A DNA stretch of 64,000 nucleotides from an uncultured Thermoleophilia bacterium (lineage in GTDB: Bacteria; Actinomycetota; Thermoleophilia; UBA2241), in NCBI GenBank assembly GCA_963741075.1, contig CAVUGS010000009.1:142308-206307 (forward strand), given 5' to 3'. How positions within the stretch are numbered: the stretch's first letter is position 1; each line of letters begins with the position of its first letter. The translations under genes and the position numbers were made by a program. Positions 3,264-52,057 of this stretch are shown here, piece after piece. The notes under the pieces were generated by a model. It made no database searches. It was not told the DNA's origin and saw nothing but the letters and a program-made list of their open reading frames with translations.

Positions 3264-3932
3264 TCAATCCAGACCGACCAGACCGTCGCGGATGGCGTAC
3301 TTGACCAGGTCGGTGACCTTGTGGAGGTCCAGCTTGTCCATGATGTTGCTGCGGTGCGTCTCGACCGTCTTGCGGCTGAGGCACAGCAGTTCGGCGATGT
3401 CCTGGTTGGTGTTGCCCTCGGCGATCAGCTTGAGGACCTCGCGCTCGCGCGCGGTGAGCTCCACGGAGTGCCGCCGCGCCGACGGCTCGCGCACGCGCTG
3501 CAGGTAGTCGTCGAGCACCGCCTCAAGCGCCACCGGCTGCAGGACGCGGCCGCCGTGCACGACGGCCCGCACGGCCGAGAGCAGGTCGCTGCGGTCGACG
3601 GTCTTGAGCAGGTACCCGTTGGCCCCCGCCTGGACCAGGCGCAGCACGCAGTCCTCACGGTCGTTGCGCGTGAGGACCAGCACCTTGAGTTCGGGGTACC
3701 GGCGCATGAGCTGGCCGGTGAGCTCGAGGCCGTTCATGCGCGGCATGATGGTCTCGGTGACGACGACGTCGGGATGACACTGACTGACGAGCGGGAGCGC
3801 CTCGAGGCCGTCGCCCGCCTCGGCGACGACCTGGATGTCTGGCTGGGCGTCGAGGAGAGAACGCACGCCTTGACGTTCGATGGCGTGGTCGTCCACGAGC
3901 AGAACGCGGATCTCGGCTTGCGCGCCGTCCAC
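3264..3932 (-). CDS. LuxR/NarL-family two-component response regulator
   Basis: Receiver domain VLLVDDH...D..VVTE(T)IMP, C-terminal LuxR HTH (REREVLKLIAEGNTNQDIAELLCLSRKTVETHRSNIMDKL). Confidence 0.85.
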   Translation of the reverse strand: MDGAQAEIRVLLVDDHAIERQGVRSLLDAQPDIQVVAEAGDGLEALPLVSQCHPDVVVTETIMPRMNGLELTGQLMRRYPELKVLVLTRNDREDCVLRLVQAGANGYLLKTVDRSDLLSAVRAVVHGGRVLQPVALEAVLDDYLQRVREPSARRHSVELTAREREVLKLIAEGNTNQDIAELLCLSRKTVETHRSNIMDKLDLHKVTDLVKYAIRDGLVGLD

Positions 3933-20679: not shown

Positions 20680-21609
20680 ATGGCAGACAGAGTCAAGGAG
20701 ATCCTCAGCTGGTACTCGTCCGACAACCCCGGCACGCTGACCAACCTCTATCGCATGCTGAACCACGGTACGCTCGCCGGCACCGGCAAGATGGTCATCC
20801 TGCCGGTGGACCAGGGCTTCGAGCACGGCCCGGCGCGCAGCTTCGCGCCCAACCCCGCCGGCTACGACCCGCGCTACCACTTCCAGCTGGCCCTCGACGC
20901 CGGCGACCAACGCCTACGCGGCGCCGCTCGGGTTCCTCGAGGCCGGCGCCGCCGAGTACGCCGGGCAGGTGCCGCTCATCCTGAAGGCCAACAACTCCGA
21001 CTCGCTGTACTCGGGCAGCGACCCGATCCCGGCCGTCACCGCCTCGGTGGACGACGCCTTGCGCCTCGGCTGCGTAGCCATCGGCTTCACCATCTACCCG
21101 GCCTCGGCGGCCCGCAACGAGATGTACGAGGAGCTTCGCGAGCTGGCGCTCGAGGCCAAGGAAGCCGGCCTGGTCGGTGGTCGTGTGGAGCTACCCGCGC
21201 GGGTCCGGCATCAGCAAGCAGGGCGAGACGGCCATCGACGTGTGCGCCTACGCGGCGCAGATCGCCGCCCAGCTCGGTGCGCACATCATCAAGGTCAAGG
21301 CGCCGACGCGATCACATCGAGCAGGACGCGGCGCGCAAGGTCTACGAGGCCAAGGGCATCAAGGTCGACACCCTGGCCGACCGTGTGAAGCACGTGATCC
21401 AGAGCGCGTTCGACGGCCGCCGCATCGTCATCTTCTCCGGCGGCGAGGCCAAGGGCACCGAGGCCGTGCTCGAGGAGAACCGCCAGACCGCCCTCGGCGG
21501 CGGGTTCGGCACGATCATGGGGCGCAACTCGTTCCAGCGCGAGCACGATGAGGCGGTCAAGCTGCTCAGGGACGTCATGGAGATCCATCGCACGACCTGG
21601 CCGAACTGA
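20680..21609 (+). CDS. Class I (DhnA/FbaB-type) aldolase / ADH-synthase family, at least 3 apparent frameshifts
   Basis: ILPVDQGFEHGP, LILKANNSD, Schiff-base Lys context HIIKVKAP. Segments lie in ORFs 20680-, 20969-21388, 21177-21551 and the C-terminal part of 20095-21609. Confidence 0.7.
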   Translation: MADRVKEILSWYSSDNPGTLTNLYRMLNHGTLAGTGKMVILPVDQGFEHGPARSFAPNPAGYDPRYHFQLALDAGDQRLRGAARVPRGRRRRVRRAGAAHPEGQQLRLAVLGQRPDPGRHRLGGRRLAPRLRSHRLHHLPGLGGPQRDVRGASRAGARGQGSRPGRWSCGATRAGPASASRARRPSTCAPTRRRSPPSSVRTSSRSRRRRDHIEQDAARKVYEAKGIKVDTLADRVKHVIQSAFDGRRIVIFSGGEAKGTEAVLEENRQTALGGGFGTIMGRNSFQREHDEAVKLLRDVMEIHRTTWPN

Positions 21610-21742
21610 AGCGCTGAGCGGCCCGCCGCAAGGGCGGAGGGAGACGAGAACATCTGGACCCTCCGCCCGCCTGCGCGGCCGCTTGTGGGCCTGCTTGACA
21701 CGCCCGCGACCCCGTCTGGTATGGTCCGGAAGCGCGCTTCGT

Positions 21743-21762
21743 TTAGTTATCCGACTAACTAA
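21743..21762. promoter_or_regulatory. Candidate TetR operator upstream of mtbB copy 1: TTAGTTA-tccgac-TAACTAA
   Basis: Perfect 7-bp inverted repeat in an AT-rich patch 34 bp before the start codon; near-identical to the palindrome at 25499-25520. Confidence 0.55.
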
Positions 21763-21795
21763 CGACCGCCCTTCGGGGGGACGATGGGAGGATCG

Positions 21796-23184
21796 ATGGC
21801 ACAGCGCATCCCGACACGGCTCGGTGACGGCTCGCTCGTCGAGATGACCCGGGCTGAGGTCGAGGCCGACCTGCACGCCGGCTCGGAGGCGGCCGTCAGG
21901 CGGGCGAAGGTCGAGCCGCTCACGCAGGACGAGCTCGATCACCTGCTCGACATCTTCACCTCCCCGGCGAAGTTCAGCGCCGTCGACTACGGCGACGAAG
22001 TCGTCCTCAGCTTCGACGGCTCGGGCAACGCCGACCTCGGGGCGCCGATCCTCGAGCAGGTCGTGTACCAGAACCACCACGGCGCCGACATGATCGAGCT
22101 CTGGCACCACGACTACTCGTACAAGGCCGTGCGCACCGTGCTCTCGTTCCAGACGCAGATGCTCAAGGACGCGCAGCAGCAGACGGTGATCCCGCTCAAC
22201 TACGGGGCGATGCCGGACCTGGGCCGCTACTCGCAGCCGGACGGCCCGGTCCAGAACTGGTCGGAGCTGATGCCGCTGGGCAAGATCGCCGAGGCGCGGG
22301 CCGCCCAGCTGGAGGCCGTCGAGCACCTCGAGCACGACATGTGGCTGGTGGCCGAAGCGATGGTGGCGGCCGGAGCCGACGGCCTCGACTTCGACACCGC
22401 AGGGGCCGCCGGGGACGCCGACCTGCTGGCCACGCTGCGCACGGCCCGCAGGGTCCGCGACACGTGGCCCGACATCGGCGTCGAGATCGGCCAGGCCGCC
22501 GAGCTCGTGCTGGGCATGCACGGCGAGCTCGAGTACGAGGGCATCCGGCTGGCCGGCCAGTGGCCGCTCGGCCAGCTCCGCGCCTGCACCGCCGCCGGCG
22601 CCACGATCTTCGGGCCGGCGGTGAACGTCAACACGACGAAGTCGCTCGCCTGGAACACCGCGCGCTCCTGCGCGCTCATCAAGCCGGTCACCGCCGAGGC
22701 CACCATCCCGGTGCACGTGAATGCCGGGATGGGCGTCGGCGGCGTCCCCATGACCCCGTATCCGCCCGTCGACGCCACGTCGCGCGCCTCGCGGGCGCTG
22801 GTCGACATCTGCAAGATCGACGGGTTGTAGGTGGGGGTCGGGGATCCCCTCGGGATGGCCTCGTCACACGCGCTCGCCTCGGGCATGGGCGGGATGCGGA
22901 CTGCCGGAGATCTGGTGGCCCGCATGCAGATGACCCGGGGCCTGCGCCTTCCGCAGGCCAAGCAGTACGTCGCCGACAAGCTCGGCTGCTCCGTCGCCGA
23001 CCTCAGCGACACCGTCGCGATGCACGACATCCGCCGCGATCTCGGCCTCGGCCGCATCCTGGTGCAGGACCTCACGTACGCCGACCAGCCGGGGACGATG
23101 GAGGCCAAGTTCCACATCGCCGAGGTGCTGGACATCCCGATCAACTCGGTGGAGCGCTTCAAGGCCAACGCCGGACTGCGGTAA
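21796..23184 (+). CDS. mtbB: Dimethylamine:corrinoid methyltransferase MtbB-like, in-frame TAG (putative pyrrolysine) at 22828-22830
   Basis: [31 protein letters not shown]...[42 protein letters not shown]. Total ~462 aa with the TAG at ~residue 345, as in archaeal MtbB (467 aa, Pyl 356). RBS GGGAGGA before the ATG at 21796 (alternative ATG at 21784). Confidence 0.85.
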
Positions 23185-23191
23185 GGAGACT

Positions 23192-24689
23192 CATGGGCTC
23201 GCAGCTCGACCTCAGCCGGCGGCAGCCGCTGCTGCCGCTCGGCTCGGACTTCGCCGTGCGCTTCTACGACGACGCGAAGCTCGACCGCTACAAGGAAGCC
23301 GTGCTCAGCGTGCTCGAGCGGACCGGCGTCAGGTTCGGCTCGCCGAAGGCGCTCGACATCCTCGCCGAGCACGGCGCCGACGTGGACCGCGCGTCCGGTG
23401 TCGTGCGCTTCGCGCCCGACCTCGTGACGGCCGCGCTGGCGAAGGCCCCGCGGACGTTCTGGCTGGGCTCCCGCGACGGCACGCTCGACCTCGACCTCGC
23501 GAGCGGCGAGACCTACAACACCACCAACGGCTGCGGCACCGAGGTCGTCGACTGGCACACCGGCGTGCGCCGGCCGCCGACCAAGGACGACCTCTCGGCC
23601 ATCACGCGCATGATCGACTACCTGGGCTCCGTCCAGTTCTGGTGGCCGAACGTCGCTGCCGCCGACTGCGGTGACACGCACACCCTGCACGAGCTGGACG
23701 CGGCCTGGAACAACACCGGCAAGCACCTCCAGGGCATGGTGCAGGGCGAGCGCGAGGCGCGGTTCGCGGTCGAGATGGCGACGGTGATCGCGGGCGGGGC
23801 GGAGCAGCTGCGCCGCCGCCCCCCGATGAGCAACCTCATCGGCACCGTCCAGCCGCTCATCAACGACAAGGACGGCATCGAGGCGGCGCTGGTGTTCGCC
23901 GAGGCGGGCATCCCCGTGTGCTTCGTCACCATGCCGACCTACGGGACGACGGCGCCGGCCACCAAGGCCGGCGCCTGCGTGATGGGCTTCGCCGAGCTGA
24001 TCAGCGCCACCGTGTGCGTGCAGCTGGCGCACCCCGGCGCGCCCGTGATCCTCTTCCCGCTGCCGGTGCACGCCGACCCGCGCACCGCGGCGCTGACCAC
24101 GGCGCCGCTGAATCACCGCGGCCTGTTCCTGCCCGGCGAGCTCGTGCACCACTTCGGGCTGCCGGCGATGACCGGCTACGCCGGCACCGACGACGACCTG
24201 CCGGGCAGCTGGCTGGCCGCGGCGGAGACGGCGCACACGGTGATGCTCGCCGGCGTCGTCGGCTCGGAGCTGATGACCACCATCGGGCTGACCAACCGCT
24301 ATCAGCTGTTCACGCCCGAGCACATGATGCTCGACGACGACCTCTACCACCGCGCCGCAAACGCCTTCCGCGACCTGGAACTGGACGAGGAGACCCTGGC
24401 GCTGGACGTCATCGACGAGGTCGGGCCGGGCGGGCACTTCCTGGGCCAGCCGCACACGCGCCGGCACATGAAGGAGACCGTGGAGCGCTCGATCGGCCAG
24501 GAGCTGGGCCCCGACGGCACGCACCTGCGGCACCCGGTAGAGGTCGCGCGCGAGCGGGGCGTCGACATCCTGGAGCACTACGTGCCGGAGCCGCTCGACG
24601 CGGCGAAAGCGGCGGAGCTGGCAAGGATCTGCGCCGCCGCGGACGAGGAACTCGGCGGCCAGGTCGTGGGCCGCGGCGAACGCGACTGA
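23192..24689 (+). CDS. MttB-superfamily methyltransferase, non-pyrrolysine paralog (quaternary-amine type)
   Basis: Uninterrupted 499-aa ORF with AAGGAG RBS. Homologous throughout to the MttB-family genes at 26950 and 28446, but has TGYAGTDDD where the Pyl motif would be. Confidence 0.75.
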
Positions 24690-24708
24690 CGTTCGGTCGG
24701 CGCCGCCG

Positions 24709-25410
24709 TCAGTCCGGCTCGTCGCCTGGCTCGCCGCCCGACTCGACGTGGCCCAGCACGAGCCGGCGCCAGAGGTCGAAGGCCGGCTCGAAGTCCAGGT
24801 CCGGGTCGGCGAGCTTCTGCAGCGCGATGCCGTCGGCGATGGCGACCGTGAGCAGCGCCATGGGCGCGATGTGCGCCGCGGGCTCCTTGTCGCCCGCGTC
24901 CTTGAGCGCCCACGCGTCCAGCTTGCGGTACCAGTCGAAGAGCTCGCGCAGGTGCGGTCGCAGCTCATCGTCGCGCAGGATGTGCGGGATGAGCTCGAAG
25001 AAGTTGCGGTAGGCGTCGGTGTCCTCGGGCAGTCCCTCGTGCAGCGCGAGCAGCTGCTTGCGCCGCTCGTCGCCGGCGGGGACGGCGGTGAGCTGCTCGA
25101 TGAGCTCCACCGCCTCCTGATACATGACGGAGTCGACGAGCGCGACGAGCAGGCCGGCCTTGCTGCCGAAGTGGTAGCGGATGAGCGCAGGGTTCTCGCC
25201 CGCCTCCCTGGCGATGGTCTCGAAGGTGAGACCGCGGAAGCCGTCGCGGGCGAGCACGCGCCTGGCCGCCTCCAGGATGCGCGCGGCCGTCGGGGCGAGG
25301 TCGGGCGTGGGATCGCCGAACGGCAGTTCGTACCTGGTCAGCGCACCCACCCCCTTCGCGTCTGTCGCCGGGCGTCGTCCGCGCGCCGCCCGGCGTTTTT
25401 CGATGCGCAC
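24709..25410 (-). CDS. TetR/AcrR-family transcriptional regulator
   Basis: HTH segment LTFETIAREAGENPALIRYHFGSKAGLL. Convergent with the mttB paralog and divergent from mtbB copy 2. The true start may be internal. Confidence 0.8.
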   Translation of the reverse strand: MRIEKRRAARGRRPATDAKGVGALTRYELPFGDPTPDLAPTAARILEAARRVLARDGFRGLTFETIAREAGENPALIRYHFGSKAGLLVALVDSVMYQEAVELIEQLTAVPAGDERRKQLLALHEGLPEDTDAYRNFFELIPHILRDDELRPHLRELFDWYRKLDAWALKDAGDKEPAAHIAPMALLTVAIADGIALQKLADPDLDFEPAFDLWRRLVLGHVESGGEPGDEPD

Positions 25411-25498
25411 CCTATCGGATACCGGCGGCCGCGCGCCAGACCCACGCCTCGGCGCAGCCGCCTTGACACCCCAAGTGCGTCTGCTAGTCTACCCGCAT

Positions 25499-25520
25499 AT
25501 TAGTTATGTAACTAACTAAT
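25499..25520. promoter_or_regulatory. Candidate TetR operator upstream of mtbB copy 2: ATTAGTTA-tgtaac-TAACTAAT
   Basis: Perfect 8-bp inverted repeat in the divergent TetR/mtbB intergenic region; same half-sites as 21743-21762. Confidence 0.6.
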
Positions 25521-25548
25521 CCTGCATGACGGCCATCGGGGGTGCTGG

Positions 25549-26953
25549 AGTGGAGAGACCCGTACGCACGCGACTCGGCGACGGGTCGCTCGTCGAGATG
25601 ACGCCCGGCGAGATCCGTGAGGACCTGCTCGCCGGCACCGAGATCGGCGCCCGCCGCGCCAAAGCCCCGCCCCTCTCGGACGCCGAGATCGACCACCTGC
25701 TCGACATCTTCTCGACCGAGGCCAAGTTCAGCGCCGTCGACATGGGCGACGAGGTCTGCCTGAGCTTCGACGGTTCCGGCAACCTGGACTCCGGCACGCG
25801 CGTCGACGAACTCTACAGCTACCAGAGCCACCGCGGCGCCGACATGCTCGAGCTCTTCGCCATCGACTACTCCTACAAGGCGATCAAGACCATCCTGAGC
25901 TACGAGACGCAGGCGATGAAGGTGGCCCAGCTCAACCTCATCGCGCCCACGCAGTACGGCGCGATGCCGGACCTGGGCCGGTACTCGATGCCCGACGGCC
26001 CGATCCCGAACTGGTCCGAACTCATGCCGCTCGGCCGCATCCAGGAGGCGCGGGACGCCCAGGTGGCGGCCATCGACCACGCCGTCAGCGACATGGTGTT
26101 CGTCGCCGAGGGCATGTGGGAGGCCGGCGCCGACGGCATGGACTTCGACACCGCCGGCGCCGCGGGAGACGCCGACCTGCTCGCGACCCTCACGGCGGTC
26201 GAGACACTCAAGGGTCGCTACCCGGACGTCGGTATCGAGCTCGGCATGGCGAGCGAGTGCGTCCTCGGCATGCACGGCGAGCTCACCTACAAGGGCACCC
26301 GGCTCGCCGGCATGTGGCCCAAGGCGCAACTCGAGGTCGCCCAGAAGGCCGGCGCCACCATGTTCGGACCGGCCGTCAACGTCAACACGACGAAGTCGAT
26401 CGCCTGGAACGTCGCCCGGGCGTGCACGATCATCAAGCCCTGCATGGACGTGGCCGAGATCCCCGTGCACCCCAACGTGGGCATGGGCGTCGGCGGCGTG
26501 CCCATGAGCCCGTACCCGCCCGCCGACGCCGTCTCGCGTGTCTCCCGCGCGCTGGTCGACATCCTCAAGTGCGACGGGTTGTAGGTGGGCGTCGGTGACC
26601 CTCTGGGCATGGCGTGCACGCACGCGCTGGCCTCGGGCATGGGTGGGATGCGGGCCGCCGGAGATCTGGTGGGCCGCATGCAGATGACCCGAGGGATGCG
26701 CCTCAACGAAGCCAAAGCCTACGTGGCGGAGAAGCTCGGCTGCGCCGTGGCCGACCTCGCCGACCCCATCGCCATGCACGACGTGCGCCGCGACCTCGGC
26801 CTCGGCCGGATCCCGGTGCAGGAGCTCACGTACCCCACGCACGCCGGCGCCATGGAGGCGAAGTTCCACATCGCCGAGGTGCTGGACGTCCCCATCAACA
26901 GCGTGGCGCGCTTCCAGGAGTGCGCCGGGCTGCGCCAAGGAGGAGCGGTGTGA
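25549..26953 (+). CDS. mtbB: MtbB-like dimethylamine methyltransferase copy 2, in-frame TAG at 26582-26584
   Basis: ...[46 protein letters not shown]...; the GTG at 25549 after a GGAG RBS gives an N-terminus collinear with the other copies (ATG at 25526 is an alternative). Confidence 0.85.
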
Positions 26954-28429
26954 AGAGGAACCTGCACGCCGGCGGCACGCGCAGCCGCGGGCTGAGCGTC
27001 AACGTCTTCACCGAGTCCGAGCTCGAGGACATCCATCTCGCGTCGCTCGAGGTGCTCGAGCGTACCGGCGTGTTCGTGGAGGCGGACGACGCGCGCGACA
27101 TCTTCCGGGACGGCGGGTGCGCCGTCGACCCCGAGACGCGCATCGTGCGCATCCCGCCGCACGTCGTCGAGGACGCCATCGCCTCGTCGCCGAGCAAGTA
27201 CGTGCTCTGCGGGCGCGACCCCAGGAACGACTTCCTCATGGAGCCGGGCCGGGTCGGGTTCACCAACTTCAGCGAGGGCATCCGCGTCATCGACAGCGAC
27301 ACCGGCGAGTACCGCGAGTGCACGCTCGAGGACGTCGGCGACATCGCCCGCCTCAACGACTACCTCGGCGAGATGGACACGCACGAGATCTCCGTCGGGG
27401 CCAGAGACGTCCCGCCGGAGACCGCCGCCGTCCACAACACCGAGGCGCAGCTGCTCAACACGACCAAGCCGATCGGCATCGGGCCGCTCTCGGGGATGGA
27501 GTGCCGCGCGATCCTGCGCATGTGCGCCGAGGTCGTCGGCGGCGAGGACGCGCTCCGCGAGCGGCCCATCGTCTACGGCGGCGTCTGCCCCGTCAGCCCG
27601 CTGAAGCTGCCGCGCGACGTCACCGAGGTCATCATCGAGTGCTCGCGCTGGTGGATCCCGGACAACATCCTCAGCATGGCGATGGCCGGCGGCTCCAGCC
27701 CCGTCACCCTCGCCGGCACCCTGGTCACGCACAACGCCGAGGTGCTCGAGCGGCATCGTGCTCGCCCAGCTCACGGAGCGCGGCTGCCCCGTGATGTACG
27801 GCAGCTCGACGACGGCGATGGACCTCAAGCTCGCGGCGGCCTCCGTCGGCTCGCCGGAGATCGCGCTGATCAGCGCCGGCGTGGCGCAGCTGGCCCGGCG
27901 CTACACGATCCCGAGCTTCGTGGCGGGGTTGTAGGCGGATTCCAAGCTCGGTGACGCGCAGACCGGTCACGAGAAGACCCTCACCGGCCTCACGGCAGCG
28001 TTGGCAGGCGCCAACCTGATCTATGGTGCGGGGATGATCGAATCGGGCGTCACCTTCGACAGCGCGCAGTTCGTCATGGACAACGAGATCGCGCGCATGA
28101 TCAAGCACGTCGTCGGCGGCATCCGCGTCGACGACGAGAGCCTCGCGGTGGACGACATCGCCGCCGTCGGCGCGTTCGGCGACTTCCTGAGCCTGGACGC
28201 GACCATGCGCCACATGCGCGAGCTCAGCCAGCCTGAGGTCCTCGACCGCCGCGTGCGCGAGGACTGGGAGGCACGCGGCAGCACGGACCTGTACGCTCGC
28301 TGCCACGCCAAGGCGAAGGATATCCTCGCCGAGCACCATCCCGAGCCGCTCCCCGACGACGTCGCGAAGCGCATCCGTGCGATCGTGGAAGAGACCGACC
28401 GCGCCGTGGGCGTCAGCGCGCCGGCGTGA
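26950..28429 (+). CDS. mttB: Trimethylamine-methyltransferase MttB-like with in-frame TAG (putative pyrrolysine) at 27942-27944; one apparent frameshift near 27749
   Basis: ...[65 protein letters not shown]... The C-terminal 160 aa after the TAG have no start codon and continue MttB homology. GTG start overlaps the mtbB stop (GTGTGA). Confidence 0.75.
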
Positions 28430-28445
28430 GCCGAGAGGGAACCCC

Positions 28446-29920
28446 GTGAAGGACCCACTCAAGCAAGCCATCATCCGGCAGCCTCTGGCGCCTCTGCGGT
28501 CCGACTTCTCGTTCCGCTTCCACGACGAGGCGGGGCTGGAGCCGCTGCACGAGGCCACCCTGCGGCTCCTGGAGACGACGGGCATGCGCTTCGAGTCGCC
28601 CAAGGCGCTCGCGATCCTGGACAAGGCCGGCGCGAAGGTGGACGAGGGCTCTGACCTCGTCCGCCTGCCCCGCCGGCTCGTCGAGGAGGCACTCGCCCAG
28701 GCGCCGCGGCAGTTCACGCTCGGCGCCCGGGACGCGGCCTGCGACCTGCGACTCGGCTCGGGCTTCACCTACGGCACCACCGACGGCTGCGGCGTCGAGG
28801 TCGTCGACTGGCACACCGGCGAGCGCCGCTCGTCCACCAAGGCCGACCTCGAGGCGATCACCCGCATGCAGGACTGCCTCGGCTCGATCAGCTACTGGTG
28901 GCCCACGGTCAGCGCCGGCGACTGCGGCGAGACCGCGCAGCTGCACGAGATCGAGGCCGGCTGGAACAACACGGGCAAGCACCTCATGGGCATGGTGCAG
29001 GGCGAGACGCTCGCCAGGGCGGCCGTCGAGATGGCGACCGCGGTGGCCGGCGGGGCCGAGGAGCTCCGCCGCCGGCCGGTCCTCAGCGACCTCATCGGCA
29101 CCGTCTCGCCGCTCCTGCACGACAGGGACGGCATCGAGGCCGGCCTGGTCTTCGCCGCGGCCGGCGATCCCGGTCTGCTACGTGACCATGCCCAACCTCG
29201 GCACGACGGCGCCGGCCACCAAGGCCGGCGCGTTCGTCGTCGGCGCCGCCGAGATCGTCGCCGCGGCGGTGCTCCACGAGCTCGCCGCGCCGGGCAGCCC
29301 GGTCATCGGGTCGATCATGCAGATCTACGCCGACCCGCGCACGGCGCTCACCCTGACGACCCCGCTCGACGACCGCTGCCGGTTCCTCGCCACCGAGCTG
29401 CTGCACAGCTTCGGGATCCCGGCGCTGGGGGCGTTCGGCGGCACCGACGCCCAGGCGCCCGGGACGTGGCTCGCCGGGGTCGAGACCATGCTGCAGCTGC
29501 TGCAGGTGCCGCTCGACGGCTGCGAGCTCTACACGCGGCATCGGGCTCACGGACACGTACCAGCTGTTCACGCCCGAGACCCTCATCCTCGACGACGACC
29601 TCTACCACCGCGCGAGGCACGCCTTCCTCGACATCCCCATGGACGAGGAGTCGCTCGCGCTGGACGTGATCGACGCCGTCGGCCCGGGCGGGCACTTCCT
29701 CGCCCAGCCGCACACCCGCCGGCACATGCGCGACGCCGTCCTGCGCTCGGTGAGTCAGCAGATCGGCCCGGACGGGCAGCACTACCGCGACCCGGTGGAG
29801 GTCGCGCGCGAGCGCGCCCTCGACATCCTCGACGGCTACCGGCCGGAGCCGCTCGCCGCCGACGTGCAGAGCGAGCTGCGCCGCATCGTCGACGCCGCGG
29901 ACGCGGCGGTCAAGGGATAG
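28446..29920 (+). CDS. MttB-superfamily methyltransferase, non-Pyl paralog 2, at least 2 apparent frameshifts; terminates with TAG
   Basis: Collinear with the 23192-24689 protein (N-terminal region ~43% identical to it, then TMPNLGTTAPATKAGA...GPGGHFLAQPHTRRHM). Segments lie in ORFs 28377-, 29182-30168 and 29639-29920. Confidence 0.7.
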
Positions 29921-30961: not shown

Positions 30962-31826
30962 TCAGGTGTCGAGCAAGAGACGATCGACGGCGAAAGCCTC
31001 GCCGGCGACCTCGTGGAACTTCTCGATGAGGTCGCCGACCTGGAGCGTAGCCTTCTGCTCGCTGCTCAAGTCGAGGACGATGCGACCGGCGTGCATCATG
31101 ACCAGCCGGTCGCCGTAGCGCAACGCCAGCTCCATGTTGTGGGTCACCATCAGAGTCGTCAGCTGGCGCTCCGTGACGATCTCGCCCGTGAGTCCCATGA
31201 TCGTGGCCGCTACCTTGGGGTCCAGCGCGGCCGTGTGCTCGTCGAGCAGGAGGAGGCTCGGCTCGGCGATGGTCGCCATGAGCAGGGACATCGCCTGGCG
31301 CTGTCCGCCGGAGAGCTTGTTGACCCCCGCCTTGAGCCTGTCCTCGAGGCCCATGCCGAGGCGCGAGAGCTGCTCGCGCATCACTGCGCGCCGCTTGTTG
31401 GTCACGCCCATGCGCAGGCTGCTCCGCTTGGCGCGGAGCAGCGAGATGGCCAGGTTCTCCTCGATGGTCATGTCGGGGGCGGTGCCGGCGCGCGGGTCCT
31501 GGAACACCCTGCCGATGGACCGGCTGCGCACGTACTCGGGCTGCCTGGTCACGTCCCGTCCGCCGAGGAGCACCTTGCCCGACGTCACCGCAAACGTGCC
31601 GGCCACGGCGTTGAGGAGCGTGGACTTGCCGGACCCGTTCGAGCCGATGATGCTCACGAACTGGCCGGCCGGGACTACAAGGTCGATCCCGTTGAGCGCC
31701 ACGACCTCGTTGGCGGTGCCGGGGAAGAAGATCTTGCGGATCGCGCCGAGCTCCAGCGGGGCCGGCGCGCGAAGCGGTGCCCCTCCGGCGCCCCGCTCGA
31801 TAGCTTGTCTGCGGCGGCTGTTCACG
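30962..31826 (-). CDS. ABC transporter ATP-binding protein (COG1101-type)
   Basis: GSNGSGKST Walker A, LSGGQRQAMSL signature, LLLLDEHTAALD Walker B; GTG start overlaps the permease stop (GTGA). Confidence 0.8.
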
Positions 31827-32725
31827 AGTGCATCACCTTCTTGCGCACCGTGGGGACCGAGAGAGCGACGACGACCAGGACGGCCGTCAAGAGCTTGAGG
31901 TCGGTCGGCGCAATGCCCAGCCGCAGGCTCACGGCGATGAGCAGCCGGTAGACGATCGAACCGCCGATGACGCTGAACAGCACCCAGCTGATGCTGCGGA
32001 CTCCGAACAGCACCTCGCCCATGATCACGCCGGCCAGGCCGGCCACGATGGTGCCGATGCCCATGCCGACGTCGGCGAACCCTTGTTGCTGCGCCACCAG
32101 CGAGCCGCTCAGCGCGACCAGCGCGTTGGCGATGCCCAGGCCGACGATGCGCGTGATGTTGGTGTTGGTGCCCATGCGCCCGGATCATGCTCTCGTTGTC
32201 GCCGGTCGCCTGCAGGCAGAGGCCGAACTCGGTGTGCAGCAGCCAGTCGAGCAGGTACTTGACCGCCACGGCGAGCGCGGCGAGCCCGATGATGAGGTTC
32301 CACGCGACCATCGACAGCGAGAACAGCGCGCCGATCTTGTCGAAGATGACCTGCACGCCCAGGAGCGGGGTGTTGCTCTTGCCCATGATGCGCAGGTTGA
32401 CCGTGTACAGCGCCGTCATCGTGAGGATGCCGGCGAGCAGCTTGGGACCGTAGTTGGTCGCGTCGCCGTCACCCGACTTGAGCAGCAGATGCAGGAACCC
32501 GGTGACGAAGCCGGCGCACAGGCCTGCGAGGACGCCGGCCGCCGTCGCAAGGACGGGCGAGTGGCCGCCGGCGATGAGCGCCGCCGTGACGGCCGCGCCG
32601 AGCGGCAGGCTGCCGTCGACGGTGAGGTCGGGGAAGTCGAGCACGCGGAACGTGATGAACACGCCCAGCACCATGAACGCGTAGACGAGACCCTGGAGCA
32701 GGGCGCTCTGGATGATGACCTGCAC
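31822..32725 (-). CDS. ABC transporter permease (COG4120-type), one apparent frameshift near 32190
   Basis: MQVIIQSALLQGLVYAFMVLGVFITFRVLDFPDLTVDGS... continues as (M)GTNTNITRIVGLGIANALV... in another frame. Confidence 0.7.
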
Positions 32726-32741
32726 TGACGCGACTCCGTGA

Positions 32742-32820
32742 CGGGGGCCGGAGTAGCTTCGCTGCTCCGGCCCCCCGTTGGCAACCCCGACCCCCGCCCG
32801 CCCGAGGCGGGCGGGGGTCG
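32742..32820 (-). other. Two tandem GC-rich intercistronic hairpins between SBP and permease genes
   Basis: acgggggccggag...ctccggccccccgt and gacccccgcccgcc-cgag-gcgggcgggggtc. Confidence 0.45.
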
Positions 32821-32841
32821 CAGGGACGTGTTACCGGCGGC

Positions 32842-33871
32842 TCAGAACTTGTTCTGCGCCTGGGACTTGAGATCGGCGGGGATGGTGACGCCCATGGCCG
32901 CCGCCGCCTTCTCGTTGATCGGACAGCTGCAGGTTCTTGGCGTACTCGACCGGGATGTCCTTGATCGGCGTGCCGCTCAGGATCTCGGCGGCCTGGTAGC
33001 CCGCCTGCTTGCCCAGGTCCTTGTAGTCGAACGCGTAGGCGGCGACGGCGCCGCGCTTGACGCTGTCGGTGTCGCCGGCGATGACGCGGGATCTTGTTCT
33101 GCTCGCCGATCTTGATGATGCTCTCGAGCGCCGAGACGGCGGTGTTGTCGCGTGAGCACCGAGATGGCGTCCACGCGGCCGACGAGCGACTGCGGTCGCC
33201 GCCTGGACCTCGGACGAGTTGCTCGGCGGTCGCGTCGATGACCTTGATGCCCATCTTCGCCGCGGCCTCCTTCTCGGCCTTGATGAGGAACACCGAGTTG
33301 GACTCGCCGGCGTTGTAGACCACGCCGATCGGTCTTGACGTCCGGGACGATCTGCTTGATGAGGTCGAGGATGCGGCTGCACCGGCAGCATGTCGCTGAC
33401 GCCGGTCACGTTCGCCGGTCGGAGCCTTCGGGTCGGTGACGAGGCCGGCGCCGACGGGATCGGTGACGGCGGTGAAGACGATCGGGGTGGTCGTGATCGG
33501 CCTTGACGACGGCCTGGGTCGTCGGAGTGGCGACGCCGAGGATCAGGTCGAGGCCCTCGCCGGCGAACTTCTGCGCGATGCTCGAGGCGTTCGCCATGTC
33601 GCCCTGCGCGTTCTGGTCGTCGTAGGTGACGTTGGTGAAGCCCTTCTCGGCCAGCGCCTCCTTGAAGCCCGCGACGGCGGCGTCGAGCGCCGGGTGGGTG
33701 ACGATCTGGGTGATGCCGATCTTGTACGCCTTGCTCGTGCGTCGGAGCTGCTGCTCGGACTGCTGCTGGAGCTGCTCGAGTCGCTGCCGCAACCGGCGGC
33801 GAGGCCGAGCGCGACGACGAGAGCACGAGCACGATGGCGACGCTCAGCCTTGACATGGGACGCATCGTTCT
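32842..33871 (-). CDS. ABC transporter substrate-binding lipoprotein (COG2984-type), multiple apparent frameshifts
   Basis: MRPMSRLSVAIVLVL..LAAGCGS lipobox, KIGITQIVTHPALDAAVAGFKEALAEKGF..., VVYNAGESNSVFLIKAEKEAAAKMGIKVIDA, end ...NLQLS..QNKF; pieces spread over three or more frames. Confidence 0.6.
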
Positions 33872-34086
33872 CCTTTCGGACCTCTGGATGGTTGGCGCAT
33901 TGTAGTGGCGCCGCGTCTGCGCGCACAAGCACTGCGACTCATACGATATGCAGACGGAGATACAGCACCAAGGAGAGGGCGGCGGGCCGCTGGCCCGCCG
34001 CCCTCTCCGAGTGCGACGCCTGAGCGCTGGAGCCGGCGGCGCGTCCGGGGGCGGGCCTCCCGCCCCTCCCCGCGCCGCCCCCGCCG

Positions 34087-35488
34087 TCAGAAGCCCGAGG
34101 TCCGCTCCTTGAACCGCTCGACCGAGTTGATCGGGATGTCGAGCAGCTTGCTGATGTTGAACTTGGCCTCCATCATGCCCGGCAGCGCCGGATGCGTGGA
34201 CGAGGTCATGGTGAGCAGGCCGAGCCCGTGGTCCTGCCGGATGGTCTCCATGGCGACCGGATCGGACTGAGGTCGCGCGTGGTGCAGCCGAGCTTGCCGG
34301 CCACGTACTCCTTGGCTTCCTTGAGACGCATACGCCTGGTCATCTGCATCCGAGCGACGAGATCTCCCGCCGCCCGCATACCGCCCATGCCGGACGCCTG
34401 CGTGTGGGCTCCCTCCATGCCGAGAGGGTCGCCCGTGCCCACCTAGTAGCCGTCGATCTTGAGGATCTCGACGAAGGCCTTGCTGGCCCGCGAGGTGGCG
34501 TCGGCGGGCGGGAACAGGCACGTCGGCACGCCGCCGACGCCCATGCCCACGTTCACGTGCACCGGGATCGTGGCGACCTCGGCGGCCGGCTTGATGAAGG
34601 TGATCGCCCGGGCGATGTTCCAGGCGGTCGACTTGCCGGTGTTGATGTTGACGGCCGGCCCGTAGATGCTGGCGCCGGCCGCGGTGACCATCTCGAGCTG
34701 CTTCTTGGGCCACATGCCGGCGAGGCGCTCGCCGTCGAACTCGAGCTGGCCGTGCATGCCGAGCACGAACTCGCTCGCCATGCCGATCTCGATGCCCAGA
34801 TGCGGGTACTTCTCGCGCAGCTGGCGGCAGGCGGTGAGGGCGGCGAGGAAGTCGGCGTCGCCCGCCGCCCCCGTCGTGTCCATGTCGATGCCGTCGGCGC
34901 CGGCCTCGATCATGGCGTCGGCGACGAAGTCGATGTCCTCGACCAGCATCGCCGCAGGCCTCGACCTGGGCGTCGCGCGCCTCGTCGATCTTGCCCATGG
35001 GCAGCAGCTCGGACCAGTTCGGGATGGGGCCGTCGGGCTTCGAGTAGCGGCCCAGGTCGGGCATGGCGCCGTACTGCACCGGGTTGGTGAGCAGCGCCTG
35101 CGCGATCTTCATGCTCTGGCCCTCGTGGGCCACGTTGGTCTTGACGGCCTTGTAGGAGTAGTCGGCCTGCCACAGCTCGGGCATGTCGATGCCGAGCAGC
35201 GTCTCGTAGCTCTGCAGGTCCTGCACCCGGTTGCCGATGTGCTTGGTCCCGGTGCCGTCGTTGCTCAGCACGACCTCTTCGCCGATGTCGACGGCGGTGA
35301 AGCGCGCCGACGATGCGTAGATGTCGAGCAGGTGATCCAGCTCGTCCTGCGTGAGTACGTCGACCTTGGCCTTCTTGGCCGCGACCCTCGGTGCCTTCTT
35401 CGAGATCGGCCTTGATCTCGGAGCGGGTCATCTCGACGAGCGACCCGTCACCCATGCGAGTGGGGATCTTGGGCTCCAACAGCATCAC
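34087..35488 (-). CDS. mtbB: MtbB-like dimethylamine methyltransferase copy 3, in-frame TAG at 34443-34445; 3-4 apparent frameshifts
   Basis: [21 protein letters not shown]..., [37 protein letters not shown], ...[45 protein letters not shown]..., C-terminal ...[27 protein letters not shown]. Confidence 0.75.
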
Positions 35489-35650
35489 CTCCGTGCTTCG
35501 TCCGGATCGACCGCCTGCGCCGTGGCGCGCGAGGCCCGCGAGCTACCACGATGAGAGCGAAGCGATGCGACCACTGTCCGGCGGACCTCCGCGCGCCAGT
35601 CTACAGCGGCCTCCTTCGGAGGCGCCACCGGCCAGAAGGCCGCGAGGAGA

Positions 35651-39098: not shown

Positions 39099-40481
39099 TC
39101 AGCCGCCGGTGAGGGCGCGCAGACGCTCGGCGGAGCGCACCGGCACGTCGAGCACGCGGGCGATGTTGAGCTTGGCCTCGATCGCCAGCGCGTCTTCCAC
39201 GGTCGCCGTGTCCTCGGTGGGGATCGTCCCCAGGCCGTGCGCGCGGCGCACCTCGGCCATCGTCACCGGGTCGCTCAGGTCGGCGGGGCTCACGCCGAGC
39301 TTGTCGGCCACGTAGGCCTTCGCCTCGGGAAGCCGCATCCGTCGGGTCATCTGCATGCGGGCCACCAGATCTCCGGCGGTCCGCAACCCGCCCATGCCCG
39401 ACGCGACACCGTGGCCGATCCCCTGGCTGTGGTTGTCGCCGGCGCCGATCTACAAGCCGTCCAGCCGCAGGAGGTCGACGCACGCGCGCGAGGCGCGCGA
39501 GACGGCGTCGACCGGCGGCAGCGCGTGCATGGGGACGCCGCCCACACCCATCCCCCCGTTGAGGTGGATGGGGATCTCGGCGGCGTCGGTGCACGGCTTG
39601 CAGATGGTGCAGGTGCGCGCCACGTTCCAGGCGACCGTCTTGCCGGTGTCGACGTTGATGGCCGGTCCGAAGACCGAGGCGCCGGCCCTGGCCGCCAGGC
39701 GCATCTGGTCCGCCGGCCACAGTCCCGCCAGCCGCACCCCGTCGTACTCGAGCTCGCCGTGCATGCCCAGCACGAACTCGCCGGCCATGCCGATCTGGAT
39801 GCCCCAGTGCGGGTACCTGGCGCGGATGCGCTCGATCGCCTTGAGGGCGGCCAGGAAGTCGGCGTCGCCGGCCGCCCCGGCGGTGTCCAGGTTGATGCCG
39901 TCGGCGCCGGCCTCGTACATGCCCGCGGCCACGTACACGATGTCTTCCACCGCGAGCTCGACCGCCTCCTCCTGGGCCGCCCGCGCCTCTGCGATGCGGC
40001 CCAAGGGCAGCAACTGCGACCAGTTGGGGATGGGGCCGTCCGGCACCGTGTACCGCCCCAGGTCCGGCATGGCGCCGTACTGGCACGGGACGGTGAGCAG
40101 CAGCTGCGCCCGGCGCATGGTCTCCTGCTCGAACGGCAGCACCGGCTTGACCGGCTTGAACGAGTAGTCGTGGTGATACAGCTCGACCGTGTCGGTGCAG
40201 ACGGTCTGCTCGTAGTTCTGCAGGTCGTTGATGCGCGACCCGGCGTCCTGGCTGCCGACGCCGTCCGAGCTCAGGACGACCTCGTCGCCGATGTCGACGG
40301 CGCTGAAGCGGGAGCGGCTCGCGAAGATGTCGACGAGGTGGGCGATCTCGTCCACCGCCAGCGGCTCCACCCTGGCCCGCTTCGCCCCGGCCTCGGCGCC
40401 CGCGTGGACGTCGGCTTCGATCTCGGCGCGGGTCATCCGCACCAGCGACCCGTCGCCCATGCGCGTCGGGATGCCTTCCAT
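39099..40481 (-). CDS. mtbB: MtbB-like dimethylamine methyltransferase copy 4, in-frame TAG at 39450-39452, otherwise intact; divergent post-Pyl segment
   Basis: [112 protein letters not shown]...; 460 codons. Confidence 0.8.
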
Positions 40482-41074
40482 CGGCCCTCCGTCCGTCCGA
40501 ATCGTGTTCCCGCCGGCGCGGCCGCGACGTCGGTCGCTGCCCCTCCGACGTCCCGAGGCTACAGGGCTCGCGGCCGGCTGTCAGCGGCGGATACTTGGGC
40601 AAAGTTCACGGCGGCACGGCGCAAAGGTACGGCGACGCGCGGCGGGAGCCGGGTACGGGCGAGACGACCCCACAAAGGGGCGAGGCCCCGCGGGGAACGG
40701 GGCCTCGTACAAGGGCTTTGGGGCAAACCCTCGTGAGGGGGGTTCTTCGCTTGCCAGCGAAAGGAGCCATCCACATCTTCCCCAATGAATGTTGCGCCCG
40801 CGTGAAGCGGCGCGAACGCGCGAGAAGGGAAGGTTGCCCGGCAGTTACAGGGCAGGCGGGACCAGGGGTTGGGGGTCGGGTCCGCGCCCTGAAGATGGCC
40901 GAAGGCCGGCGGATCGTGCCGCTTTGGGGCGGCCGCCCGCCGGCCCTCTGGCCGTGGTTCGCCCGGGGCCGGGGCGAACCAAGAAGATAGGAGGTACCAG
41001 CACTTGGCGCTGGCAGCGGGCTTCTCGGAGACGGGAAGCGTCGCAAGGGGGACACTAGGAGCGACGTGTTGCGG

Positions 41075-49023: not shown

Positions 49024-51445
<2,422 letters not shown>

Positions 51446-51544: not shown

Positions 51545-51958
51545 TCAGGCGTGCCGGCGCCGCCGGCCGATGTGCACGACCTGGGTGCGGGTCACCGGCA
51601 CCAGGTCCATGCGGTGGGAGCGCTCGACGCGCTGCACCTCGCGGCGCATGGCTTCGGCGGCCTCCGCCAGCTGCGTCTGGAGCGCCAGCATCTGGCGGTG
51701 CATGACGTCCAGTTGCTCCTCCATCGCGAGCACGCGCTCCACGCCCGCCAGGTTGAGTCCGAGCTCCGTGAGCTCCTGGATGCGCTGCAGCCGCTCGACG
51801 TCGCGCTCCGAGTAGCGGCGCGTGTTCTTGGCCGTGCGCTGCGGGCGCACCAGCCCGCGCCGCTCGTAGAGGCGCAGCGTCTGCGGGTGCATCCCCGCGA
51901 GCTCCGCCGCCACGGAGATCATGAAGAGCGGCCTGTCGCTGTCGTGTTCCTGTCTCAT
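51545..51958 (-). CDS. hspR: MerR-family heat-shock repressor HspR
   Basis: [52 protein letters not shown]; located directly downstream of dnaJ. Confidence 0.85.
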
Positions 51959-52057
51959 GACCGGGTCTCCGCCATCGGTCTTCCCACTGCCACCACGGGC
52001 ATCAGTCCGCCTTCCGTGACCGCTGCCAGTCGAGGCGCTCAATAGCTCTTCCGTGCA

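Follow-up and report, generated by a model that had tools for sequence, protein, structure and literature searches.

The locus examined here raises the question of which factor might control the transcription of methylamine methyltransferase genes that depend on pyrrolysine (Pyl) in an uncultured Thermoleophilia bacterium. The DNA analysed, hereafter called the window, is a stretch of 64,000 nucleotides (contig CAVUGS010000009.1, positions 142,308 to 206,307), in which two near-identical AT-rich palindromes with the pattern TTAGTTA-N6-TAACTAA precede two dimethylamine (DMA) methyltransferase genes, mtbB1 and mtbB2; the second palindrome lies between mtbB2 and a divergently oriented tetR gene. 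The original prediction, made from the letters of the stretch, had recognized a TetR-operator architecture in this arrangement. That view was borne out in silico by the co-location of palindrome and tetR gene in 37 of 38 loci, the position relative to the promoters, an unbiased k-mer count, a genome in which the palindrome has outlived the neighbouring operon, and distant TetR genes next to the same motif. We therefore consider it likely that the palindromes are operators of the adjacent TetR-family protein, which would repress both methyltransferase operons, be released by a ligand and probably regulate its own gene.

The first palindrome, operator site B (TTAGTTATCCGACTAACTAA), is located at 21743-21762 and the second, operator site A (TTAGTTATGTAACTAACTAA), at 25500-25519, neither being assigned to a strand. 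Site A is flanked by A and T, giving the stretch 25499-25520. Sequence reading and a pattern search confirmed the positions of the two palindromes as well as their common half-sites and spacing. The scan for TTAGTTA-N6-TAACTAA, which had been proposed as a genome-wide check, returned within the 64-kb window just these two sites, and no others even when up to three mismatches were allowed; 0.02 sites are expected by chance, and none of 100 dinucleotide-preserving shuffles contained two. With a weight matrix made from orthologous sites, the two palindromes scored 39-44 bits and the next-best position in the window 0.3 bits, and the 7-mers TTAGTTA and TAACTAA are absent from the rest of the window. 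The surrounding DNA has a GC content of 66-73%, and the start codons indicated by alignment with orthologues, ATG 21797 for mtbB1 and GTG 25550 for mtbB2, follow 34 nt after site B and 30 nt after site A, in agreement with the predicted distance of about 30-50 bp and the background of about 70% GC.

For comparison, an alignment of TetR was used to collect 39 genome loci of approximately 12 kb each, of which 38 encode relatives that are 52-95% identical to the window protein; nearly all are labelled as Thermoleophilia, Actinomycetes or Actinomycetota metagenome-assembled genomes (MAGs). The palindrome was found in 37 of these 38 orthologous tetR loci; on contigs of sufficient length it occupies two fixed positions and is absent from the rest of the ~12 kb. 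The first copy is situated 80-240 bp upstream of tetR, as is site A, and the second about 3.6-3.8 kb away, beyond the convergent operon, at the position equivalent to that of site B. Synteny analysis with the window proteins (tblastn) placed site B before an mtbB1-type gene and a non-Pyl mttB homologue, and site A before mtbB2 and a Pyl-encoding mttB or, in many genomes, directly before Pyl-mttB; the latter holds for the genomes that lack mtbB2. In one genome (L004) the divergent methyltransferase operon is absent altogether, and the palindrome is still found 65-80 bp upstream of tetR. An unbiased count of 7-mers in the 300 bp upstream of tetR ranked TAACTAA/TTAGTTA highest (33 of 35 loci), followed by 7-mers overlapping with these and then by CTTGACA. 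Each site shows the same layout of a TTGACA box, a TAnnnT -10 box, a short variable stretch, the palindrome, variable sequence, a Shine-Dalgarno sequence and a start codon, and in site-by-site comparisons the flanks have diverged while the palindrome and the promoter boxes are conserved.

These comparisons bear on the explanation that the two sites resemble each other as a result of a recent duplication of an mtbB promoter region, or that they are AT-rich palindromes which arose by chance. The downstream genes are indeed paralogues, both being mtbB, and the two promoters share the sequence TTGACAC. However, the upstream regions are unrelated outside the motif and the promoter hexamers, and MtbB2 is only about 68% identical in protein sequence to the products of the mtbB1-type genes of the related loci, each forming a separate conserved lineage across genomes. 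The range of TetR identities given above also excludes that the loci are near-identical copies of one genome, and the motif has been kept over dozens of species with varying flanks, which, with the low number of sites expected by chance, led us to reject this explanation as refuted by the conservation across genomes.

Promoters were taken from the cross-genome conservation of TTGACA-N16-19-TAnnnT, the TAnnnT -10 box being of the actinobacterial type. In front of mtbB1, a -35 box TTGACA was identified at 21695-21700 (+) and a -10 box TATGGT at 21720-21725 (+), the latter 17 nt before the palindrome in this genome. In front of mtbB2, the corresponding boxes are TTGACA at 25463-25468 (+) and TAGTCT at 25485-25491 (no strand assigned); both -35 boxes are based on sequence reading and on the orthologous loci. 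Among the related loci, 34 of the 36 A sites have TTGACA-N16(-17)-TAnnnT, in most cases with 9-10 nt between its end and the palindrome, and 31 of the 33 B sites have TTGACA-N17-19-TAnnnT, in most cases with 12-17 nt in between. One TetR dimer, or perhaps a pair of dimers, would bind TTAGTTA-TnYRAC-TAACTAA right after the -10 boxes of P(mtbB1) and P(mtbB2) and would cover approximately +2 to +30 of the transcripts, by which initiation or promoter escape could be blocked. The operons silenced in this manner would be operon 1, composed of mtbB1 and the non-Pyl mttB homologue, and operon 2, in which mtbB2 is followed by Pyl-mttB and by another homologue of mttB. Binding of a small molecule to the C-terminal domain would release TetR from the DNA, the most economical guess for this molecule being a methylated amine or its demethylation product.

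The same geometry is relevant to the alternative that TetR binds the sites but is an activator, or has a dual role, and is not a simple ligand-released repressor. A few TetR-family proteins do activate transcription, FasR and DhaS are among the weak NCBIfam matches of the window TetR, and the direction of regulation is not readable from sequence alone. At both promoters, however, the operator is found downstream of the -10 box and over the likely transcription start, which is a repressing position, and both promoters have near-consensus TTGACA -35 boxes, so that an activator would not be needed at either. An activating or dual role appears distinctly unlikely on these grounds.

Comparison of 66 distinct sites revealed that conservation extends into the centre of the palindrome. 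T occupies position 8 in 56 of 66 sites, positions 10 and 11 are Y and R in all 66, A is found at position 12 in 62 sites and C at position 13 in 51, while the flanks of these sites contain 0.05-0.5 bits. In the direction of the methyltransferase gene, the sites have the consensus TTAGTTA-T-n-Y-R-A-C-TAACTAA. The N6 spacer proposed earlier is not a free spacer, since it is partly conserved. The element can be described as two overlapping dyads, an outer TTAGTTA-N6-TAACTAA and an inner TTAGTTA-N2-YRACTAA, with an additional TTAG/CTAA periodicity of 4 bp. The inner dyad is the better preserved of the two in the most remote clade (L031-L035), one member of which (L033) carries the symmetric variant TTAGTCA-TC-TGACTAA.

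This anatomy can be set against the possibility that the palindrome functions as a hairpin in the 5'-untranslated region of the mRNA and controls how stable the methyltransferase transcripts are or how they are translated. Transcription of both copies is probable, as they lie downstream of the predicted -10 boxes, and a stem of 6 bp with a loop of 6 nt is predicted for each of them. The stem is weak, however (-3.2 kcal/mol), and the leaders fold no better than shuffled sequences (z = 0.05 and -0.43). Variants in three related loci (L012, L019 and L031) disrupt base pairs with no compensating change, the sequence of the loop is conserved, and the 2-nt spacer of the TTAGTCA-TC-TGACTAA clade cannot form a hairpin. 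Moreover, the genome without the divergent operon (L004) keeps the site upstream of tetR without a methyltransferase gene, the same motif is found over promoters of TetR genes in other phyla, and no Rfam match at E<=1 overlaps either palindrome, a PYLIS element inside mtbB1 being the one match of relevance. The weak hairpin, the lack of an Rfam family, the uncompensated variants, the conserved loop and the site in L004, taken together, indicate that the palindrome is a DNA site and not an RNA element, and we regard the hairpin as very unlikely.

The candidate regulator itself is encoded at 24709-25350 (-), convergent with operon 1. The TetR gene had originally been placed at 24709-25410 (-), next to site A. 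The open reading frame (ORF) is genuine, with a match of its product to the helix-turn-helix (HTH) family TetR_N (PF00440, E=5e-13, 49 bits against a cut-off of 24), and site A does lie in the divergent region, but alignment with homologues moves the likely start to GTG 25350 instead of 25410. A second match was found to TetR_C_31 (PF17940, 33 bits against a cut-off of 27). An AlphaFold model, built with an alignment of 15 sequences, is all-helical with nine helices, although of low confidence (predicted local distance difference test score, pLDDT, 65; predicted template modelling score, pTM, 0.41), too low for its fold or pocket to be compared. Two features expected of a TetR repressor-operator pair are present in the sequence, namely a TetR_N HTH domain joined to a helical C-terminal domain, and a palindromic putative operator that is situated beside the regulator gene and overlaps a promoter. 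A search for homologues retrieved 275 TetR proteins, the closest named ones being from Thermoleophilia; together with the labels of the related loci, this places the bacterium in that class. The recognition helix NPALIRYHFGSKAGL is invariant across the orthologues, which matches the invariant half-sites of the palindrome; a comparison of HTH and operator covariation was uninformative, as the helix is unchanged even in the clade with variant operators (L031 and L035). In addition, an N-terminal arm YELPxxDPxPDLxPTA (residues 7-22, encoded at about 25285-25332, -) precedes helix 1 and is invariant in 15 homologues with 67-94% identity; it might add contacts to the DNA, for instance in the minor groove at the AT-rich central part. 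The matches of the C-terminal domain are generic and point to no ligand. The window TetR had no match above any NCBIfam cut-off, and a sequence search of the PDB gave similarity at the level of the HTH only (best match E=1e-7), without a close solved homologue.

The alternative that another transcription factor, encoded elsewhere, binds the motif and that the proximity of tetR is incidental has to be weighed at this point. The sequence covered amounts to 64 kb from the genome in question and some 12 kb for each of the related loci, so that further regulators and sites may exist, and binding by TetR is predicted from sequence. Nevertheless, tetR is the sole TetR-like ORF in the window, and the remaining regulators are far off: a LuxR-type response regulator at 3264-3932 and a MerR/HspR protein at 51545-52042. 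Motif and tetR keep fixed relative positions in all but one of the orthologous loci, and in L004, where the operon next to it has disappeared, the site has remained with tetR.

Further evidence on this point came from metagenome contigs, which were searched for the exact consensus TTAGTTATNYRACTAACTAA. At least 120 contigs were matched, and the figures that follow apply among the matches listed. The same Thermoleophilia cluster was found on 39 of the 120 contigs. On 29 other contigs, with GC contents of 0.32-0.71, the 5' end of a TetR-family ORF is located 1-162 bp from the motif, mostly at less than 30 bp. The remaining 52 contigs are mostly AT-rich, and chance matches are plausible there. 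The motif thus lies next to a TetR gene in 68 of the 120 contigs, and 59 of the 61 TetR-like ORFs in the 617 kb of matches listed are found beside a site. With the exact 20-mer beside a TetR-family gene in so many unrelated contigs, recognition by a factor other than TetR is considered unlikely. Every Thermoleophilia-type match listed corresponds to site A or site B, and no further regulon members were identified by this exact-pattern search among the contigs listed, although others may exist.

The TetR proteins encoded beside the motif on these other contigs differ widely, with GVTQGTIYYHFKTKE, GVNHGLVHHYFGSKE and ANAGSVYFFFQTKQE among their recognition helices; none of the proteins reaches a named NCBIfam model, and one group resembles YxaF and QacR (L094). 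Their gene neighbours have no relation to methylamines and encode MMPL/RND transporters, HlyD, DUF5367, Amidohydro_2 and DUF7790 proteins (L046, L056, L064, L067, L082, L084, L094 and L118). Judged by this distribution, the motif is a putative operator type common to several TetR clades and phyla and is not specific to methylamine regulators. It follows that the TetR-binding reading of the sites in the window is strongly supported, and also that the DNA sequence tells nothing of the ligand. As the same 20-mer occurs beside very different TetR genes, identical operators need not mean orthologous regulators or shared ligands. It is conceivable, though doubtful, that the window TetR senses trimethylamine (TMA), DMA or a quaternary amine directly and that its operator belongs to an unusually widespread class which has been reused unchanged across TetR clades. 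Equally tentative is the suggestion that a DNA-reading module could have been paired repeatedly with different ligand domains in the Thermoleophilia, Firmicutes-like, MMPL-linked and YxaF/QacR-like clades.

Autoregulation of tetR is suggested by the arrangement around site A. The bases that read TAGTCT towards mtbB2 read TAGACT towards tetR, where they form a candidate -10 box located 7 nt beyond the palindrome, and their surroundings are more conserved than a single hexamer would need. In the genome that has lost the divergent operon (L004), TAGACT is likewise found on the tetR strand 7 nt after the palindrome, and the TTGACA of the lost promoter is gone. Site A would cover the -35/spacer region of this candidate divergent promoter, so that the repressor would limit its own synthesis, and we consider tetR likely to be autoregulated.

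Several observations weigh against parts of the proposed repressor-operator scheme. First, a sigma-70 scan of 21550-25650 called no promoter at all, and the transcription starts are deduced from consensus boxes; the negative outcome of the scan is explained by its strict criterion of a -10 box close to TATAAT. Secondly, a conserved GATAGGGT box is found in several genomes 80-100 bp nearer to tetR and is a possible real tetR promoter, which makes autoregulation less certain than repression of the methyltransferase operons. In the window a GGATAGGGTGCGCATCGA box is located at 25405-25425 (-), between site A and the tetR start, and it recurs at the same place in the loci L001-L013; it could represent an alternative tetR promoter with a -10 box TAGGGT, or the start of a longer N-terminus at GTG 25410. 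Thirdly, the outer half-sites are 13 bp apart from centre to centre, a wide spacing if only one TetR dimer binds, and the motif lacks symmetry in its conserved positions T8, Y10, R11, A12 and C13, which bears on the number of dimers and on their register. Finally, the matches of the C-terminal domain to BetI-type domains are below threshold, the model has the low pLDDT mentioned above, and the ligand candidate is a guess.

The proposed switch shows clear parallels with the Tn10 TetR/tetO system. The window TetR combines an N-terminal HTH domain with a C-terminal ligand domain, and a palindrome is located between regulator and target gene and overlaps their promoters. Autoregulation and release upon ligand binding, which are established for the family of which Tn10 tetR-tetA is the paradigm, would be expected here by analogy. 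There are also differences. The targets are corrinoid-dependent methylamine methyltransferases and not an efflux pump, and each promoter has one 20-bp operator with 7-bp arms and a semi-conserved 6-bp centre, compared to two 15-bp tetO sites in Tn10. A second operator, located 3.7 kb away, would control an operon that converges with tetR, and the window TetR resembles TetR-family proteins of known structure mainly in its HTH region.

The nearest operator found in the literature is that of IcaR of Staphylococcus epidermidis, a 28-bp core (ACAACCTAACTAACGAAAGGTAGGTGAA) to which two dimers bind, as with QacR (PMC2275139), and which sits directly by the start of the regulated gene. This core contains TAACTAAC and a 4-bp AGNTAGNT periodicity, comparable to TTAGTTAGT/ACTAACTAA in the present sites (PMC2275139). 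The overlapping inner N2 and outer N6 dyads, together with the 4-bp periodicity of TTAG, recall the overlapping palindromes of IcaR and QacR, but the conserved element is 20-21 bp long compared to the minimum of 22-28 bp in those systems. The proteins are also not closely related: QacR and IcaR were not among the PDB matches of the window TetR, whereas QacR and YxaF do match the L094 clade with the same motif.

BetI was considered as an identity for the window TetR, since it is a choline-responsive TetR-family repressor of the bet genes, and hence linked to quaternary-amine metabolism, and since the protein and several of its orthologues weakly match PF13977 and BetI models. This assignment was rejected: the scores are well below those required (TIGR03384, 34.3 vs 201.3 bits; NF001978, 29.8 vs 118; PF13977, 22 vs 27), and the neighbouring genes are mtbB and mttB, not betA, betB or betT.

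Methyltransferases for TMA and DMA that depend on Pyl are known chiefly from methanogens and a small number of anaerobic bacteria. In Actinobacteriota of soil and peat, their occurrence and expression have only recently been noted: MAGs including the genus Bog-752 from Stordalen Mire express Pyl-encoding mttB and mtbB (PMC10805028). These genes belong to the same family and lineage as those of the window, and one of our related loci (L035) is derived from the MAG bog_752. As far as the parts consulted go, that study reports occurrence and expression only and mentions neither a regulator nor an operator (PMC10805028). Our literature search found no regulator for these genes and no description of a TetR operator of this sequence, one match being only a primer sequence. 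The locus appears to combine a conventional switch with an unusual regulon, consisting of DMA and TMA methyltransferases and MttB homologues of soil Thermoleophilia, and it supplies a conserved putative regulator-operator pair with exact coordinates, a promoter geometry and a weight matrix by which the regulon can be defined in complete genomes. If the TetR protein does sense methylamines, this would be the first transcriptional switch described for bacterial Pyl-dependent methylamine catabolism, and if its ligand is TMA or DMA, the pair would constitute a ready-made biosensor module.

The genes around the two sites were mapped by GC3 frame analysis and Pfam searches. Operon 1 starts with mtbB1 (21797-23184, +; Pfam Dimeth_Pyl, E=1.6e-112), in which an in-frame TAG was verified at 22828-22830. 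It is followed by a non-Pyl MttB-family methyltransferase gene without in-frame TAG (23193-24689, +; Pfam MTTB, E=3.4e-55), preceded by a Shine-Dalgarno sequence GGAGA and starting at ATG 23193; its place after an mtbB1-type gene is kept in the related loci. Operon 2 is divergent from tetR and starts with mtbB2 (25550-26953, +; in-frame TAG verified at 26582-26584), followed by mttB (26950-28429, +), which encodes a TMA methyltransferase, has an in-frame TAG at 27932-27934 and matches Pfam MTTB on both pieces of its sequence. The stop of mtbB2 and the start of mttB overlap at 26950-26953 (GTGA), suggesting translational coupling within operon 2. A third MttB-family gene of this operon (28446-29920, +) has a GTG start and is split over two frames (Pfam MTTB on 28377-29666 and 29357-29917); it would belong to operon 2 on account of its orientation and spacing. 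The predicted targets had been described as Pyl methyltransferase operons; besides the mtbB genes with their TAG codons, these operons include Pyl-mttB and the non-Pyl MttB-family genes.

The in-frame TAG codons coincide with the PYLIS elements identified with Rfam. On the plus strand, PYLIS_2 in mtbB1 (22828-22927, +; 63.7 bits), PYLIS_2 in mtbB2 (26582-26681, +; 66.5 bits) and PYLIS_3 in mttB (27932-28031, +; 74.9 bits) all begin exactly on the in-frame TAG (22828, 26582 and 27932). Two further PYLIS_2 elements are located at 34346-34445 (-) and 39353-39452 (-), and all five matches exceed the gathering scores of their models. In total, this stretch of a high-GC actinobacterial genome contains mtbB in four copies and a single Pyl-mttB. 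ARAGORN identified no tRNA-Pyl in the window, and no pyl biosynthesis genes were found among the ORFs scanned with Pfam, which cover part of the window.

Upstream of mtbB copies 3 and 4, the pattern and weight-matrix scans of the window detected no TTAGTTA-N6-TAACTAA motif, as had been noted before. The accompanying suggestion that these copies are regulated differently is supported by the finding that copy 4 and its orthologues carry a different conserved upstream element. Copy 4 is located at 39099-40481 (-) and is preceded by the element TTTGCCCAAGTATCSGCCGYTG at 40582-40603 (-), followed by a TAGCAT/TAGCCT box. Within the upstream region 40556-40603 (-), TTTGCCCAAGTATCCGCCGCTG is followed about 25 nt later by this -10-like box (TAGCCT/TAGCAT). 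The element is shared by 'third mtbB' genes in eight of the related loci (L001, L002, L009, L010, L012, L014, L017 and L020) and probably represents a separate regulator site with a promoter.

Some additional observations were made in the course of this analysis. In one of the contigs compared (CAVZIA010000017.1; L010/L011), the entire module of operator, mtbB, mttB homologue, tetR, operator and mttB occurs twice in tandem, approximately 7.6 kb apart, with the operators kept in each copy. The Pyl-mttB gene of the window contains a 1-nt insertion near 27747 (27740-27755; ctcGagcggc compared to ctc-agcggc in L001 and L007), by which the frame is shifted; in the orthologous loci checked (L001 and L005), the N- and C-terminal parts share one frame. 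Other genes in the window also appear to be split, i.e. the MttB-family gene at 28446-29920, mtbB copy 3 at about 34000-35490, clpB at 49024-51445 and an ABC transporter gene at 30962-33800, suggesting indel errors of long-read sequencing or real pseudogenes. Finally, a dnaK-grpE-dnaJ-hspR-clpB cluster, as would suit an actinobacterium, is present at 49-57 kb of the window.

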